This document shows, piece after piece, positions 30,329 to 46,134 of a stretch of DNA of 64,000 nt (positions within the stretch are counted from its first letter, which is position 1; every line of letters starts with the position of its first letter). The notes beneath the pieces were generated by a model. It was not told the origin of the DNA. It saw only the letters and a program-made list of their open reading frames with translations, and searched no databases. Location: assembly GCA_963807915.1 (NCBI GenBank), contig CAWEDO010000001.1, positions 205,561-269,560 of the forward strand, read 5' to 3'. A program made the position numbers and the translations under genes. This DNA is from an uncultured Chloroflexia bacterium (GTDB taxonomy: Bacteria; Chloroflexota; Limnocylindria; QHBO01).

Positions 30329-31903
30329 TCAACCCCGGGGCAGGACGCCCACGTTGAGCCAGCGTGACCCCGTCGCGCGCCGGACGGCGAAGGTCAGGTC
30401 GAAGGGGGCGGTCGAGCGATCGAGCAGGGCTCCATCGGCGTCGTAGGTCTCCTCGACGACCTGGCCGCGCGACTCGAATCCGAGGCTGATGCCGGTCTGC
30501 ATCCCGAACGGCACGATCAGGATGAGGCGCACGGCATCGAACTCGTAGTGCTGGACCACGGTCCTGCCGGATGCCTCGGCGTCCGCGAGCCTGCCCTGCA
30601 TCTCCGCCAGCCGGTCCCCGTGGTCGACCGCAGGCAGGAGGCTGCCGTCGCCTCGCCGGAGCGCCTGGTTCTCGACCTCCAGGTTCTCGGCCAGCGTGAC
30701 GAGGATCTCCCGGGCGCCCGAGGCGTCGATGGTGTGGTCCCAATCGGAGACGTCCCGGTCGATCGTGATCTCGGGGAAGGTGCTCGGGTCGACGACGTGC
30801 GGGACGCCGTTGAGCGCCTCCGTCATCTCCGGCACGACCAGGCCCCGAGCCGGGGTGCCGGCCGCCACGATCGCCACGCCAAGCAGGAGCACCGCGGCCG
30901 TGGCCAGCCCAAGCCGCAGTCCCGCGCGGGCGACGCCGGCGCCTCCCAGCAGGAGCCGCGAGCCGAACTCACGAATGTCGTCCGCCGCCGAGCGGGGCTC
31001 CGGCAGCAGCCGTTCGATGATCGGTCGCATGGCGGAGACGATGACGAGGCCGGCCAGGAGGCCTACCTTCGTGCCCCACTCATCGGTCTGGGGTGCCAGC
31101 AGCAGCGTGCTCGCCATGGCGGTGAGCAGGCCGAAGGCGATGCGTCCCACGTTGCCGGCGGGGATCGTCTTGGGGTCGGTGATCATGAAGAAGAGGAAGA
31201 TCATCACCTCGGGCGACGTCACGATGACCCGCCAGAAGTCGAAGCCGCAGACCGGCGCGAAGGCCCAGTTCGTCGTCATGCAGTGTCCCGAGCCGGCCAG
31301 GATGCCGGTTCCGACGGCCAGCGCCACCCAGAACGTCCCGGCCAGCGCAAGCAGGTGCAGCCGCCGGGTGATGAACAGCCCGCCCACCAGGATCACGGCG
31401 TAGGCAGCCACCATCCAGCCATTGAGCGGCGCCCACCAGAAGTCGAGCGGCTCCACTCGCGTGCTGCCGAGCACGACGAATGCGACCACGAGACCGATGC
31501 TCGACGGGTTGAAGACGTGCGATCCGCGGTAGCGGATCAGGTACTTCGTCAGGATCGAGAAGGCAGCGACGCCCGCGAAGATGTACCACGAGGCGGGGTT
31601 CCACGGATCGTCGGGCGGGGTCCCGACCACGCGGAGGATGAGCGCGACGCCGCTGCCGGTCAGCATGGCGCTGGCGGGCCACACGAACGACCGCGTCTGG
31701 CGGAAGGTCACGACCACCTCGATGATGAAGCAGGTCAGGATCGCCGCCAGGATCTCCGGCACGCTCACGCGGAAGTGGAGCCCAACCTGGCCGAGGACGT
31801 GGATGGTGATGATCACCGCCGCTACGTGCAGACGCGGGTCACGGACGCTGGGCAGGACCAGCGGATAGGGGGTGCCGCCGATCGAGAGCGTGCGGGCGGT
31901 CAT
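30329..31903 (-). CDS. Stand-alone RnfD/NqrB-like (UnbU-like) membrane protein with C-terminal soluble domain
   Basis: RDPRLH, SAMLTG, KYLIR...HVFNPS, FFMITDPKT; about 11 TM plus about 170-aa tail. Confidence 0.7.
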   Translation of the reverse strand: MTARTLSIGGTPYPLVLPSVRDPRLHVAAVIITIHVLGQVGLHFRVSVPEILAAILTCFIIEVVVTFRQTRSFVWPASAMLTGSGVALILRVVGTPPDDPWNPASWYIFAGVAAFSILTKYLIRYRGSHVFNPSSIGLVVAFVVLGSTRVEPLDFWWAPLNGWMVAAYAVILVGGLFITRRLHLLALAGTFWVALAVGTGILAGSGHCMTTNWAFAPVCGFDFWRVIVTSPEVMIFLFFMITDPKTIPAGNVGRIAFGLLTAMASTLLLAPQTDEWGTKVGLLAGLVIVSAMRPIIERLLPEPRSAADDIREFGSRLLLGGAGVARAGLRLGLATAAVLLLGVAIVAAGTPARGLVVPEMTEALNGVPHVVDPSTFPEITIDRDVSDWDHTIDASGAREILVTLAENLEVENQALRRGDGSLLPAVDHGDRLAEMQGRLADAEASGRTVVQHYEFDAVRLILIVPFGMQTGISLGFESRGQVVEETYDADGALLDRSTAPFDLTFAVRRATGSRWLNVGVLPRG

Positions 31904-41547: not shown

Positions 41548-42039
41548 CTAGAACGGCTTGACCACCATCAGCCACAGGATCACGAGCAGGCCGATCCCGC
41601 CGACCGCCGCGAGCTCCAAGGCCCGCGGTGAGTCGAGCGCGGCGGCCAGGGCCGCCGGATCGGCCTCGGGAATCGGCGCCTCCTTCTTGTCGTAGAAGCC
41701 CGCCGTGCCGAGGGCGTGCCGGATCGCGTCGTGGTGCTGCACGCCGCGGATGCTCATGAAGATGAACAGGAAGACGAGCACGCCGATCGAGACCCAGATC
41801 CAGAGGTGGCCCCAGTAGTCGCCCACGAACCCCGCCGCGATGCCCGAGGCCAGCAGGACGAGGATGGCGAGGTCCGAGATCGGGAGGCTGACCTTCGACA
41901 GGTCGAGCAGCGCGTTGACGCGGGCGAGGTCGCGCTCGCCGCGCAGCTTGATGGTCGTGAAGGCCGAGACTCCGTGTGCCAGCGCGAACGTGAACCCGGC
42001 CACGACATGCAGGAGGACGAGCCAGGGATGCCAGTTCAT
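41548..42039 (-). CDS. DUF2269-like 4-TM membrane protein
   Basis: LVLLHVVAG, SGIAAGF..WGHLWIWVSI, WLMVVKPF terminus. Confidence 0.7.
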   Translation of the reverse strand: MNWHPWLVLLHVVAGFTFALAHGVSAFTTIKLRGERDLARVNALLDLSKVSLPISDLAILVLLASGIAAGFVGDYWGHLWIWVSIGVLVFLFIFMSIRGVQHHDAIRHALGTAGFYDKKEAPIPEADPAALAAALDSPRALELAAVGGIGLLVILWLMVVKPF

Positions 42040-42046
42040 CGGTCGC

Positions 42047-42436
42047 TCAGGCCGCGACCGGTTCGGACTCCCGAACCAGCCGCCAGGCCTGGAGGGCAAT
42101 GGTCGCGCCGAGCCAGAAGAGAACGACTGCGAGGACCGGATGGAGGGCAGCGGCCCACGGCAGGTCGGCGCGCAGCATTGGAAGGAGCGGCTGAATCGCC
42201 TGGACCACGAACAGCGCACCCGTCCACAGCAGCAGGCGCTGGCCGACCCTGGCGACGGCAGCGGTGAGGATCAGGGGAATCGGCGTCAGGTGGATGAGAT
42301 AGCCGACCGACCTGTGTGTCTCGAAGTCACGATCCGCTCCGAAGAGGGCGATCCCGGCCAGGAAGACCTGGAACAGGATGGCGGCCAGGTAGAGACCGAT
42401 CAGGGCAAGGAACAGCCAGCGAGCGCCGGACACCAT
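42047..42436 (-). CDS. Small 4-TM membrane protein (DUF6220-like)
   Basis: QVFLAG...F..H, AALHPV; two His in TM segments. Confidence 0.65.
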   Translation of the reverse strand: MVSGARWLFLALIGLYLAAILFQVFLAGIALFGADRDFETHRSVGYLIHLTPIPLILTAAVARVGQRLLLWTGALFVVQAIQPLLPMLRADLPWAAALHPVLAVVLFWLGATIALQAWRLVRESEPVAA

Positions 42437-42501: not shown

Positions 42502-42954
42502 ATGTCCGGCTCGATAGCCCTTCCCGAACCATGGGCGAGCGTCCGCCAGCTGCTCCGCGCGCGTGGATTGCGCTGGACGCCGCAGCGGCGCGCCGTGGTC
42601 GAGGCGCTGGCCGGCAGCGACGGCCACATCACCGGGGCGGAGCTGCTCGAACGGTGCCGAGCGATCGATCCGGCGACCATTCCCTCGACGGTGTACCGCA
42701 CCCTGGACGTGCTGGAGGAGCTCGGGCTCGTGCAGCACGGCCACGGGGCCGATGGTCGCGAGGAGTTCCACGTGGGCCCCGACGCGCTCCACGGGCACCT
42801 GCACTGCGCGACCTGCGGCGGCCGATGGGAGATCCGCGCCGACGCGGGGCGGGCGATCATCGAGGGGCTGCGCGCCTCGGACGGCTTCGAGGTGGACCTC
42901 ACCCACGTGACGGTGGTGGGTCGCTGCGCCGACTGTGCGGCCGCGGCCAGATGA
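42502..42954 (+). CDS. Fur-family metalloregulator
   Basis: RWTPQRRAV, STVYRTLDVL, HLHCATCG, GRCADC. Confidence 0.9.
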   Translation: MSGSIALPEPWASVRQLLRARGLRWTPQRRAVVEALAGSDGHITGAELLERCRAIDPATIPSTVYRTLDVLEELGLVQHGHGADGREEFHVGPDALHGHLHCATCGGRWEIRADAGRAIIEGLRASDGFEVDLTHVTVVGRCADCAAAAR

Positions 42955-43874
42955 CGGCGACCTCCTTCCTCGGCGTCCCGCAGATCGGGCTCGACGGGCT
43001 CGCGTCGGCCAACGCCGACGTCGCCATCCTCGGCATCCCGTTTGGCGTCCCGTATCCGTCTCCAGGGCTGACCGCCGGCTGTGCCGATGCCCCCCAGGCG
43101 ATCCGGGCACGCTCGCAACGCGTTGCCCCCTTCGCCGACAACCACGACTTCGACCTCGGTGCGCCGATGCTGGTCGGATCGCCACGGCTGACGATCATCG
43201 ACGCCGGGGACGTGGAGGGGACCGCGGAGGACGGCGCGGGCAACGCCGCGCGCGCCGAGTCCGCGGTTCGGGCGGTGCGGACCGCCGGCTGCGTCCCGGT
43301 GGTGCTGGGTGGTGACGACTCGGTCCCGATACCTGTCCTGCGCGCCTATGCGGGGGAAGGTCCGCTGACCGTCGTGCAGCTCGATGCCCACCTCGACTTT
43401 CGCGACGAGGTCAGCGGGGTACGGGACGGCTATTCGTCGACGATGCGCCGCGCCGCCGAGATGGATCACGTCAAACGCGGCTTCCAGGTCGGGTTGCGTG
43501 GCGTGGGGAGTGCCGGGACCACCGATGTCGCCGACGCGCAGGCGGCGGGGAACCAGCTGGTGACTGCCCGCGAGCTGCGCGAGCGAGGCGTCCCGTGGCT
43601 GTTGAACGAGCTGCCTCCCGGAGCCGCCGTCTTCCTCGTCGTCGACCTCGACGGGATCGACCCGTCGCTGGCTCCCGCGGTGAGCGGCGTCTCGCCGGGG
43701 GGCCTCTCCTACGAAGAGGCGGGTGACCTGGTGGGTGGCGTGGCCGAGCGCTGCCGCGTCGTGGGGGCCGCGTTCACGGAGCTGGTGCCGGCGATCGACG
43801 TCAACGGGCTGTCGGCCCTGGTGGTGGTGCGCCTCGTGATGCGACTGCTGGCCGGGATCGACCGGAGCCGCTGA
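42951..43874 (+). CDS. Arginase/agmatinase-family ureohydrolase
   Basis: GGDDS (variant of GGDH), DAHLD, QVGLRG, DLDGIDP...PGG; ATGA overlap with fur. Confidence 0.85.
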   Translation: MTATSFLGVPQIGLDGLASANADVAILGIPFGVPYPSPGLTAGCADAPQAIRARSQRVAPFADNHDFDLGAPMLVGSPRLTIIDAGDVEGTAEDGAGNAARAESAVRAVRTAGCVPVVLGGDDSVPIPVLRAYAGEGPLTVVQLDAHLDFRDEVSGVRDGYSSTMRRAAEMDHVKRGFQVGLRGVGSAGTTDVADAQAAGNQLVTARELRERGVPWLLNELPPGAAVFLVVDLDGIDPSLAPAVSGVSPGGLSYEEAGDLVGGVAERCRVVGAAFTELVPAIDVNGLSALVVVRLVMRLLAGIDRSR

Positions 43875-43955
43875 GCGCGAGTCGCCACGATTCGCTAACG
43901 AGCCTTATCCGCCGTCGCGCCGGGATCGCAACACCGCGGCCCTACGCTCCGGGTC

Positions 43956-44229
43956 ATGAGCCAATCTCGCAACGCCGGCGCCGACGCAGCGCGCAAGGCC
44001 GCGCTCGAGTGGCGGATTGCCCGCCTGAAGGTCGCCGTCTGGGCCGGCGTGGCCGGTGCCTGGCTGGCGCTGTGGGCCGTGGTCAGCGGAGCCGTTGCCG
44101 GCACGACCCCGGCAGCCTCGATCCCTGCCGCGAGCACACCTGCAGAACCAGGCAACGGACCTCTTCGGCGCGGGCTCGACGCTCGGCGTTGGCTCCGGCA
44201 CGCCGGTCCTGCGTTCGCATGGCTCCTGA
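43956..44229 (+). CDS. Small membrane-anchored Ala/Ser/Thr/Gly-rich protein; probable +1 frameshift near 44143
   Basis: TM helix then PAAS linker; the alternative frame gives QNQATDLFGAGSTLGVGSGTPVLRSHGS*, overlapping the apbE start. Confidence 0.55.
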
Positions 44230-45139
44230 CGCCCTGATCGCCGCCCGGTCGGGGGAGCTAGTCGAGCACCGGTTTCGGTCGATGGGCTGCGACATCACGG
44301 TCCTGGCGCCGGCCGACTGCCACGATGCAGGGGCACGCGCGCGCCTGGTGATGGACGCCTGGGACGCGCGGTTCAGCCGCTTCCTCCCCGATTCGGAGCT
44401 CGAGCGCCTGAACGAGGCGGGCGGCAAGCCGTTCGAGGCGAGCCAGCAGATGGTCAACGTCCTCGAGGCCGCGCTGCGTGCGGCGCGAGCCACCGACGGA
44501 ATGTTCGATCCGCTGCTCGGCGGTCGGATGCGCGAGCTCGGCTACGACCGCACCTTTGCGGAACTGCCCCCCGACCGTTCGCGGCTGCCGCTCGCCGCGT
44601 GGCGCAGCGGGGCGTGGCGCGAGATCGTGGTGGAGCGGGCAAGGGGCGTCGTCCGGCTGCCTGTCGGGCTCCGGCTCGATCTCGGCGGCATCGCGAAGGG
44701 GATGGCCGTCGATGCCGCCCTGGATGCGCTCGTCTCGGCGGGCCAGCCCTGCGCCGCCGTCAATGCGGGCGGCGACCTGGCGGTGTTCGGGCTTCCCCCG
44801 GGAGCGGATGCCTGGACCGTTGCGATCGACGGTCCGCGCGAGATGGTGGTCGCCGTGCGTGAAGGAGCCCTGGCGACGTCATCGGTCCTGCGGCGGCGCT
44901 GGCGGGTCGAGGGCGTGGAGCGGCATCACCTGCTCGATCCGCGGACCGGGATGCCGGCGGCTGGGCCGATCGTGCAGGCCTCGGTCGCCGCGGCGACCTG
45001 TGCCCAGGCGGAGGTCGCGGCCAAGCTGGCGATCCTCTCCGACCTCCCCGGGGCGATCGGCCGCCTCGAGGGCAGCCGGCTGGCGGCACTGCTCATCACC
45101 GCCGAGGGCGAGGCCTGGCGCGTGGGGAGCTGGCAATGA
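44219..45139 (+). CDS. apbE: FAD:protein FMN transferase
   Basis: FRSMGC, FSRFLPDSELERLN, TDGMFDP, LDLGGIAKG.AVD, NAGGDL, ATSS, HHLLDPRTG. Confidence 0.9.
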   Translation: MAPDALIAARSGELVEHRFRSMGCDITVLAPADCHDAGARARLVMDAWDARFSRFLPDSELERLNEAGGKPFEASQQMVNVLEAALRAARATDGMFDPLLGGRMRELGYDRTFAELPPDRSRLPLAAWRSGAWREIVVERARGVVRLPVGLRLDLGGIAKGMAVDAALDALVSAGQPCAAVNAGGDLAVFGLPPGADAWTVAIDGPREMVVAVREGALATSSVLRRRWRVEGVERHHLLDPRTGMPAAGPIVQASVAAATCAQAEVAAKLAILSDLPGAIGRLEGSRLAALLITAEGEAWRVGSWQ

Positions 45140-46134
45140 GTATCGACCACACCCTGTCATGGGAGGTGGCGCGCGTCGGCGGCCTCCTGGCCTATGCCCT
45201 GGCGACCGCATCCGTCGTGCTGGGGCTCCTCCTCTCGCTGAAGGCCCACTCGACCCGATGGCCCCGTTTCATCACGAACGAGCTCCACCGACACCTGAGC
45301 CTGCTGATGCTGGTGTTCATCGGGCTCCACACCGCGGCCGTGTGGGTGGACCCGTTCACCGGCTTCAACCCCGCCGAAGTGTTCCTGCCGATGGCGTCGC
45401 ACTACCGACCGCTGTGGATCGCCTTCGGCATCGTGGCGGGCTACCTGGCCGTCGCGGTATGGCTCTCCGAGCACGTGCGCCGTCACGTGGGCTACGCCTG
45501 GTGGCACCGCTTCCACATGCTCACCTTCGTCGTCTTCCTGCTCGGCGCCGTGCACGGGCTGGGAACCGGGAGCGACTCGACGGCCCCCTGGGCGGTGGCG
45601 CTGTACGGCGGGTCGGTCCTCATCGTGGCGGCACTCGTGCTGGTCCGAGTCGGGCGCGGCCTCACCCGGCGCCCGGGCTGGGCCATGGCCGGCATCGTGG
45701 CGGCACTCGTGGTCGCGATCGCCTTCTTCGCCGTCCGCGGACCGCTCTATCCCGGATGGAACGCCGTCGCCAACAACGGCCGCGGCAACGGCGCGTCCGC
45801 CAGCTGGCTGGCGGCGCACCCGGTGACGACCGGTCCGCCGCAGGAGTTCGCCACCGACCTTCGGCTCACGCTCATCCGCGAAGACCTGCTGGATGCCCGC
45901 TTCGACGGCGGCAGGCCCGGTGAGCTGCAGCTGCTCCTGCGCCGGTCGGCCTCATTGCTGGCGATCCTGTTTGCGGACGGCTGGTCCTGCCGCGGCGACC
46001 TCACGATCACCGGCGAGGAGGTCATCGCCTCGCGCTGCGTGGGCGCCGATGGCGTCGCGCTGGGCGTGCAGCTCACCGGGCTGGAGGAGTCGGACGAGGA
46101 GCTGATCGGCCACCTGCAGGTGACCCGCAGCTGA
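45136..46134 (+). CDS. Ferric-reductase-like (MsrQ-type) heme-b membrane protein with C-terminal extension
   Basis: LHRHLS, GLHT, WHRFH, VHGL His pattern; 6-7 TM plus about 110-aa tail with two Cys. Confidence 0.82.
   Translation: MSIDHTLSWEVARVGGLLAYALATASVVLGLLLSLKAHSTRWPRFITNELHRHLSLLMLVFIGLHTAAVWVDPFTGFNPAEVFLPMASHYRPLWIAFGIVAGYLAVAVWLSEHVRRHVGYAWWHRFHMLTFVVFLLGAVHGLGTGSDSTAPWAVALYGGSVLIVAALVLVRVGRGLTRRPGWAMAGIVAALVVAIAFFAVRGPLYPGWNAVANNGRGNGASASWLAAHPVTTGPPQEFATDLRLTLIREDLLDARFDGGRPGELQLLLRRSASLLAILFADGWSCRGDLTITGEEVIASRCVGADGVALGVQLTGLEESDEELIGHLQVTRS

Follow-up and report, generated by a model that had tools for sequence, protein, structure and literature searches.

An ApbE cassette with a small anchored protein

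The DNA analysed here is a stretch of 64,000 nucleotides (nt) from an uncultured Chloroflexia bacterium (GTDB lineage Bacteria; Chloroflexota; Limnocylindria; QHBO01), comprising positions 205,561 to 269,560 of contig CAWEDO010000001.1 in assembly GCA_963807915.1 and hereafter called the window. On its plus strand, in a region of ~70% G+C, genes for a Fur-family regulator and an arginase-family hydrolase are followed by a small gene, an apbE gene and a Ferric_reduct gene, and these last three make up the cassette that is our subject (Table 1). The ApbE is predicted from its sequence to transfer flavin mononucleotide (FMN) from flavin adenine dinucleotide (FAD) to a Ser or Thr of a protein, and the Ferric_reduct gene encodes a haem protein of the MsrQ/NOX type. 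The genes are tightly packed: the apbE ATG is embedded in the small gene's codons for H-G-S-stop, an overlap of 11 nt, and a 4-nt ATGA (45136-45139) holds both the apbE stop and the start of the haem-protein gene (45136-46134; 332 aa). An earlier reading of the window, hereafter the original prediction, had described three overlapping genes without a canonical flavinylation substrate. The overlap was confirmed for ApbE and the haem protein, but the small gene is not one open frame in the window. With confidence evenly divided, we interpret the locus as a single representative of a widespread and unnamed variant of the MsrQ-like system for transmembrane electron transfer that is associated with ApbE.

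When one genome per species was scanned, 150 relatives of the membrane protein were recovered, from which 80 loci were kept, and apbE lies directly upstream of the haem-protein gene in 77 of them. At 65 of the 71 loci with complete upstream DNA, an anchored small open reading frame (ORF) ending in [ST]-x-[GVTA]-S-stop adjoins apbE; at three more it is present with a frameshift. The small gene, on whose conservation the original prediction hinged, is accordingly found at 68 of these 71 loci and in several phyla. The loci belong to Limnocylindria, Ktedonobacteria, Dormibacterota, Gaiellales and other Actinomycetes (Actinomycetota), Sulfobacillus and another metagenome-assembled genome (MAG) of the Bacillota. 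Because the three-gene order is conserved across phyla, it points to a substrate inside the cassette. One locus (L039, identical to G002) lies on a contig labelled Candidatus Methylomirabilota; its cassette is 68-73% identical to that of the window and falls in the same genus set, and the label is probably a binning or labelling error.

The small protein of the window has a basic N-terminus (R-x-x-R-L-K) and one transmembrane helix (WLALWAVVSGAVA), followed by a Pro/Ala/Ser/Thr linker. None of the Pfam and NCBIfam models searched fits the family. A profile search of 1.84 billion representative proteins returned 27 clusters, nearly all of 77-135 aa. The AlphaFold2 (AF2) model of the family predicts one helix, spanning residues 8-49, followed by coil at a predicted local distance difference test score (pLDDT) of 50-60. 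Throughout the family, the helix is preceded by the basic R-x-x-R-L-K, the tail contains an aromatic motif of FFG type, and the protein ends in P-x-x-x-[ST]-x-[GVTA]-S-stop.

In the window, the frame that opens at 43956 encodes 93 aa ending in ...AFAWLLTP, with its stop at 44237, and the tail ending in ...DLFGAGSTLGVGSGTPVLRSHGS is read in the next frame, up to a stop at 44227-44229. DNA alignment revealed a single surplus base at 44136-44139, where the window has GCACACCTG and three genomes of the same genus have GCA-ACGAG; this base (ACAC versus A-AC) stands immediately 5' of CTGCAG at 44140-44145. Orthologues align along the whole 5' part, and in the three same-genus genomes one ORF of 89-90 aa joins the same anchor to exactly the same tail. 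From this joined ORF it follows that DLFGAGSTLGVGSGTPVLRSHGS is the ancestral end, which the window reaches only by a change of frame. The corrected end given in the original prediction is hence the ancestral sequence, although it lies in another frame of the window. The G+C content at third codon positions (GC3) is 0.85-0.87 in the 43956 frame up to ~44080 and favours the tail's frame 3' of the shift. Since GC3 favours the tail frame and all conserved tail residues are preserved despite the shift, the one-base insertion would be either very recent or an assembly error. The small gene is likewise split, over two or three frames, in three loci from MFD long-read MAGs (L067, L079 and L110), which suggests that indel errors arise readily in such assemblies within the linker, a G+C-rich stretch of low complexity. 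Programmed frameshifting and a fusion of the small protein to ApbE were both rejected: the gene is an ordinary uninterrupted ORF in relatives, UCC-UGA-C would be poorly suited to +1 slippage, and homologues in which the two proteins are fused were not found.

Table 1. Positions of the cassette features, followed by upstream features, in window coordinates.
Feature	Position	Strand	Evidence or content
Small gene, 5' part (frame of 43956)	43956-44139	+	Basic N-terminus, transmembrane helix, start of linker
Frameshift site	44136-44139	+	One surplus base in DNA alignment with three same-genus genomes
Small gene, 3' part (+1 frame)	44140-44229	+	Ends LQNQATDLFGAGSTLGVGSGTPVLRSHGS-stop; FFG-type motif, P-x-x-x-S-x-G-S
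ApbE, 306 aa	44219-45139	+	Pfam PF02424, E 1.2e-51
MsrQ/NOX-type ferric-reductase membrane domain	45136-45741	+	PF01794; 6 helices, 4 His
External Gly/Asn-rich loop after helix 6	45742-45798	+	44-sequence alignment, 120 homologues
C-terminal external beta-barrel domain of haem protein (predicted)	45844-46134	+	AF2
Conserved intergenic blocks	43894-43948	+	GCTAACGAGCCTTATCC (43894-43910), GATCGCAACACC (43924-43935), TACGCT (43943-43948)
Fur-family regulator	42502-42954	+	Pfam FUR, E 1e-17
Arginase-family hydrolase	42951-43874	+	Pfam Arginase, E 5e-50; ATGA overlap with fur gene

The terminal serine, its ApbE and the haem-protein loop

Across 63 distinct tails of the small protein, the last residue is always Ser, position -3 is always Ser or Thr, and position -7 is Pro in 59. 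By comparison, 0.8% of ORF ends in this genome match [ST]x[GAVT]S, far below the frequency across the small-protein family. An obvious concern is that G-S-stop might be kept merely through its overlap with the apbE start codon. This was ruled out by ~26 loci in which the two genes do not overlap, the small-gene stop lying 5-54 nt 5' of the apbE start, and the motif is nonetheless kept (confirmed by eye in L023 and L025). Its persistence there indicates selection at the protein level. The alignment of homologues that the original prediction had proposed, in search of a terminal S/T-x-G-S, thus gave an invariant [ST]-x-[G/V/T/A]-S with or without overlap. We also considered D-L-F-G-x-G-S as a shifted flavinylation motif with the canonical Asp-to-Ser spacing. 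It was rejected, since the invariance of Asp68 and Ser74 does not extend beyond the close clade, and 27 representatives below 50% identity retain only its Phe.

We propose, at a confidence that stands midway, that the terminal Ser of the tail (44224-44226) is the FMN acceptor and that the small protein serves an MsrQ-like electron conduit as a naturally occurring flavin tag. The original prediction had suggested a non-canonical substrate, which fits well with the invariant tail and with the end of an anchored protein in a sister module of the same genome (G000). This module lies outside the window, at 1403340-1405838 of contig 1; its ApbE, which has no leader and is of the A-E-V-W-S-K form, is accompanied by a membrane protein with Ferric_reduct alone and by two anchored proteins with coiled coils. 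The second coiled-coil protein, encoded just upstream of ApbE, ends in ...PVTNATTGASGR-stop, and the end T-T-G-A-S-G-[KR]-stop is conserved in eight genomes of the class. In the sister module, an anchored protein carries the canonical motif at its very C-terminus, and its position with respect to an ApbE of the same subtype matches that of the S-x-G-S tail in the cassette.

The Pfam domain of the cassette ApbE begins ~20 residues past its ATG, and neither a signal peptide nor a lipobox was found on the protein, nor a hydrophobic stretch in any upstream frame. The sole in-frame upstream extension, from a GTG at 44009, is rich in Arg, low in GC3 and without a hydrophobic stretch. The best 120 homologues are all 203-313 aa long, which leaves no room for a leader or fusion and makes the absence of a leader a family trait. 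Domain start, upstream frames and homologue lengths thus bear out the original prediction of an ApbE lacking signal peptide and lipobox. Among 8,000 candidates scored, over 2,300 were related to this ApbE at E <= 1e-30.

Alignment to ApbE/Ftp structures in PDB (1vrm, 4xdt and 6nxi; E 5e-26 to 1e-15) showed that the protein retains the FAD-binding GGIAKG motif (as DLGGIAKG) together with the catalytic residues, Ser in ATS and His in HHLLDP. The conserved Asp of ApbE, Asp285 in Vibrio cholerae (PMC12052999), aligns with Glu265 of the window protein. Lys269 falls at or beside the canonical Thr, the alignments to 4xdt and 6nxi differing by one column. Nearly all cassette ApbEs share this C-x-x-A-E-V-A-A-K form. 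The Asp/Thr pair is, we assume, the Mg2+-binding metal site in Treponema Ftp. The change from the canonical A-D-A-x-x-T to A-E-V-A-A-K at this presumed metal site, together with the want of a leader, could mean that the cassette ApbE is not a protein flavin transferase, being instead, for example, an FAD pyrophosphatase or flavin-handling protein like Treponema Ftp for which the tail is a binding or processing signal. Yet the catalytic Ser, the His and GGIAKG are retained, a change from Asp to Glu is conservative, and in the sister module an ApbE of the same variant adjoins a canonical TGAS tail. We consider a non-transferase role to be quite improbable.

A leaderless ApbE whose likely targets are outside the membrane also raises the question of whether the small protein serves ApbE as a membrane anchor or export partner rather than as a substrate, which the original prediction had entertained. 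Such a role would suit the tight translational coupling of the two genes through the 11-nt overlap in this clade, and the basic R-L-R-R-L-K before the helix, three positions of which are invariant. However, the 120 closest ApbE homologues contain no fusion, the twin-arginine consensus is absent (the window's clade has R-I-A-R-L-K), and no leader was seen anywhere in the ApbE family. A folded ApbE of ~300 aa cannot cross the membrane behind a peptide inserted by Sec or YidC, and the conserved motifs of the small protein lie in its external tail, far from a cytoplasmic ApbE. Hitch-hiking on the twin-arginine pathway is also unlikely, there being no consistent twin-arginine motif. Of the roles considered for the small protein, that of anchor or exporter is the one to which we attach the least probability.

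The haem protein matches PF01794 at E 1.8e-7 (31.7 bits; cut-off 28 bits) and has an added C-terminal domain, as the original prediction had stated. Its AF2 model has six predicted helices (pLDDT 82). Four His are invariant in an alignment of 44 sequences, H51 and H65 on helix 2 and H127 and H140 on helix 4, and would suffice for two b haems. Their spacings of 14 and 13 presumably equal the haem-ligand spacings in helices 3 and 5 of NOX. A Foldseek search with the model found S. pneumoniae NOX and STEAP1/2. The start of the protein corresponds to helix 2 of MsrQ/NOX, and a further helix is added at its end; from this offset, the presumed NOX His spacing and the positively charged loops, both termini would be outside.

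The external loop of the haem protein reads P203..G207-W-N-A-V-A-N-N-G-R-G-N218-G-A-S221, with the family consensus P-G-W-N-x-x-A-N-N-G-N-G-[SNT]-G. Residues P203, G207, W208, N209, A212, N213, G217 and G219 do not vary among the 44 sequences, and their conservation in 120 is at least 90%. Where the window has N218-G-A-S221, the canonical [ST]GA[ST] is found in many orthologues, as SGAS, TGAS or SGAT. The original prediction's observation of no [S/T]GA[S/T] and no FMN-binding domain is literally true for the three window proteins, none of which matches PF04205 (FMN_bind), but it missed the near-canonical NGAS, which weakens the description of the module as being without a substrate. The loop may accordingly be either a second candidate FMN acceptor, at Ser221 (45796-45798), or a docking loop for a flavin tail.

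If ApbE attached FMN to Ser221, next to the outer haem, the small protein could be an unflavinylated structural or assembly subunit. This alternative draws on the presence of the motif within an otherwise invariant loop, on a relative (G028) with SGAT in the same linker, and on short haem-protein forms of ~230 aa that lack the barrel and end just past the motif, resembling a C-terminal tag. Furthermore, the Asp of the canonical motif is dispensable (PMC12052999). Nevertheless, about half of the 80 loci have SGAR, SGGV, SGQR or SGSA, with no Ser or Thr at the position of Ser221, yet they keep ApbE and the small protein. Universal conservation of the loop stops at G219, and the small protein's terminal Ser, itself invariant, would be left unexplained. 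That Ser221 is not universal whereas the tail Ser is counts in favour of the tail, and we judge it unlikely that the haem protein is the acceptor in place of the small protein.

In the long forms of the haem protein, the C-terminal domain is predicted to be an eight-stranded beta-barrel (strands 237-331; pLDDT ~85-88). It has two near-invariant Cys (C285 and C301) and a FADGWSC motif. Foldseek returned weak matches (E 0.01-0.3) to small eight-stranded, ligand-binding barrels and to nitrobindin-like folds. The possibility that this domain is a divergent FMN_bind was rejected on the basis of its fold and the lack of a Pfam hit.

Taken as a system with the tail Ser as acceptor, the cassette could work as follows. 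The dihaem protein would carry electrons from the cytoplasmic side to its outer haem, most likely from the quinol pool, since an NAD(P)H domain is missing from the protein. In place of an FMN_bind protein, the flavin carrier would be the small protein, whose basic N-terminus and single membrane helix are followed by a disordered external tail of 40-100 residues. The co-translated ApbE would esterify FMN onto the last Ser of P-x-x-x-[ST]-x-G-S-COOH, and being leaderless it may modify this short protein (~90 residues) in the cytoplasm before membrane insertion. The FMN-tipped tail, with its FFG motif, would then dock on the GWNxxANNGNGSG loop of the haem protein, and in long forms also on the beta-barrel. 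There the tail FMN would accept electrons from the outer haem for an external acceptor, and the NGAS or SGAS of the loop in this clade may be a second acceptor site for flavin.

Several points weigh against the tail Ser as acceptor. The window's small protein has no [ST]-G-A-[ST]; its tail reads S-H-G-S, and the family's [ST]-x-G-S departs from the canonical motif in that Gly is not kept at position -2 and position -1 is more often Gly than the canonical Ala. When the Gly or Ala of the canonical motif is mutated, flavinylation falls by half (PMC12052999). The haem protein of the window's clade holds a closer canonical match (NGAS, SGAS or TGAS) than the tail does, and the ApbE has Glu for the conserved Asp with Lys near the presumed metal site. 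The tail and loop are predicted to be outside and ApbE has no export signal, so that modification followed by export must be assumed. Moreover, if the frameshift is real, the proposed acceptor is not produced in this genome.

More speculatively, the tails could represent a new class of ApbE substrate in at least four phyla: domain-less, tethered, disordered peptides that carry FMN on their last Ser. In this wider proposal, which we advance only tentatively, the Glu/Lys ApbE would act co-translationally in the cytoplasm, and the flavin-bearing tail would be threaded outside to swing between the outer haem and external acceptors.

Other flavinylation genes and the surroundings of the cassette

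The genome also encodes a textbook MsrQ-like system, outside the window at ~116900-119560 of contig 2. It consists of a NOX-like protein with Ferric_reduct and FAD/NAD parts, an anchored FMN_bind protein (...INLISGATYTS...) and an ApbE that has the canonical A-D-A-Y-A-T and is also without a signal peptide. The FMN_bind protein is the only PF04205 match in the genome. No DUF2271 was detected in this genome; DUF3570 had no match either, but it had none in control genomes, so this is no sign of its absence.

Within the window, an orphan membrane protein of 524 aa resembling NqrB/RnfD is encoded on the minus strand at 30329-31903, 12 kb upstream of the cassette. It scores 24.4 bits against PF03116, below the cut-off of 27.7 bits, and a soluble domain is fused to its C-terminus; its neighbourhood contains no further rnf or nqr genes. 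Judged by eye only, it has G-S-T at the position expected for the RnfD flavinylation motif.

The cassette ApbE might serve one of these proteins, the contig 2 FMN_bind protein with its SGAT or the sub-threshold RnfD-like protein, and the small ORF would then be unrelated to flavinylation. A canonical substrate elsewhere was the explanation that the original prediction had set against itself. However, the sole FMN_bind gene is already paired with its own adjacent apbE, the RnfD-like protein is unlinked to the cassette in other genomes, and the gene order shared across phyla points back to the cassette. We regard a substrate elsewhere as very improbable.

The spacer before the small gene is 81 nt long and contains three blocks, a 17-mer, a 12-mer and TACGCT, that are invariant in five genus-level loci, with variable flanks. 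They are probably the promoter or operator of the cassette, as judged from their conservation. As TACGCT stands only 7 nt 5' of the small-gene ATG, a dedicated promoter and possibly a leaderless cassette mRNA are suggested. The 17-mer has a single copy in the genome, even when up to three mismatches are allowed, and on this ground it was rejected as the operator of a regulon. A riboswitch or other structured RNA was likewise rejected, the blocks showing no Rfam hit, no conserved fold and no covarying helix.

The original prediction had placed the cassette possibly under the nearby Fur, which these data do not favour. Synteny of fur and arginase with the cassette is confined to the genus level (L022, G003, G006 and G002) and is absent from the more distant loci L023 and L025. 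No Fur-box-like palindrome was found upstream of the cassette, and the unique 17-mer is not palindromic. Divergent from fur, the window has a gene for a DUF6220 membrane protein (42047-42436, minus strand) and an overlapping ORF for another membrane protein (41548-42219, minus strand). A DUF6220 gene occurs at the same place in the metagenome contig L022, with a weak DUF2269 neighbour, and also near the distant cassette in L023.

Comparison with known flavinylation systems

To our knowledge, the substrates of ApbE flavinylation described so far are folded domains, namely FMN_bind, NqrB/RnfD, DUF2271, DUF3570, some flavodoxins and FMN reductases. Full-text literature searches returned no description of tails such as these as ApbE substrates. 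Limnocylindria, Ktedonobacteria and Dormibacterota are abundant in soil and fresh water and mostly uncultured, and the cassette hints at an unrecognised route of extracellular electron transfer or metal reduction in these lineages. A survey in 2021 recorded hundreds of genomes with orphan apbE genes (PMC8238504), and a large set of orphan, leaderless ApbEs would be explained if the terminal Ser is the acceptor. It would also imply that a minimal flavin tag is already used in nature, and would pose the question of how a flavin-bearing tail crosses the membrane.

The closest relatives of the cassette are the MsrQ-like flavinylation-associated clusters defined in that survey, which noted that unidentified ApbE substrates remain (Meheust et al. 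2021, PMC8238504). These clusters have the same six-helix, two-haem PF01794 protein clustered with apbE and the same predicted role in transmembrane electron transfer to an external flavin, and they are common in Actinobacteria and similar Gram-positive lineages (PMC8238504; PMC11334425, Huang et al. 2024). Through its apbE, the cassette agrees with the survey's operational definition, a PF01794 gene clustered with an ApbE or FMN_bind gene. It also has the six transmembrane helices in the AF2 model and the two bis-His sites, at which haem binding is predicted. In contrast, it has no FMN_bind gene or domain (PF04205), which is typical of these clusters though not obligatory, and no NAD-binding, NuoF-like or VIT1 partner. 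Where the carrier would be, the cassette has an anchored protein of ~90 aa that lacks domains and ends in [ST]-x-G-S. Relative to MsrQ and NOX, the haem protein lacks the first helix and has gained a seventh element, the external loop, with the barrel in long forms; the cassette ApbE differs from those of MsrQ-like clusters in being a leaderless Glu/Lys variant.

In the cytoplasm of E. coli, an ApbE without a leader attaches flavin to a C-terminal tag of as few as seven residues (PMC12052999, PMC9400968). The engineered Flavin-tag (Tong et al. 2021, cited in PMC12052999; PMC9400968) is, in these accounts of it, likewise a short unstructured C-terminal peptide used with a leaderless cytoplasmic ApbE, and its motif is given there as the canonical D-x-x-S-G-A-T plus further residues. 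In the cassette, by contrast, the putative acceptor is the very last residue, in a motif [ST]-x-[GVTA]-S, and the proposed system is a natural one.

The DUF2271 and DUF3570 proteins follow the same logic as the cassette, with apbE lacking an FMN_bind partner and a conserved neighbour bearing a Ser/Thr motif (PMC8238504). They differ in being folded proteins of ~135 and ~420 aa with a true [ST]GA[ST], and their flavinylation has been shown experimentally (PMC8238504). The ApbE of Klebsiella pneumoniae fumarate reductase is also without a signal peptide and acts in the cytoplasm, although its target is a soluble cytoplasmic FMN_bind enzyme (PMC12052999), whereas the candidate targets of the cassette ApbE are predicted to lie outside the membrane.

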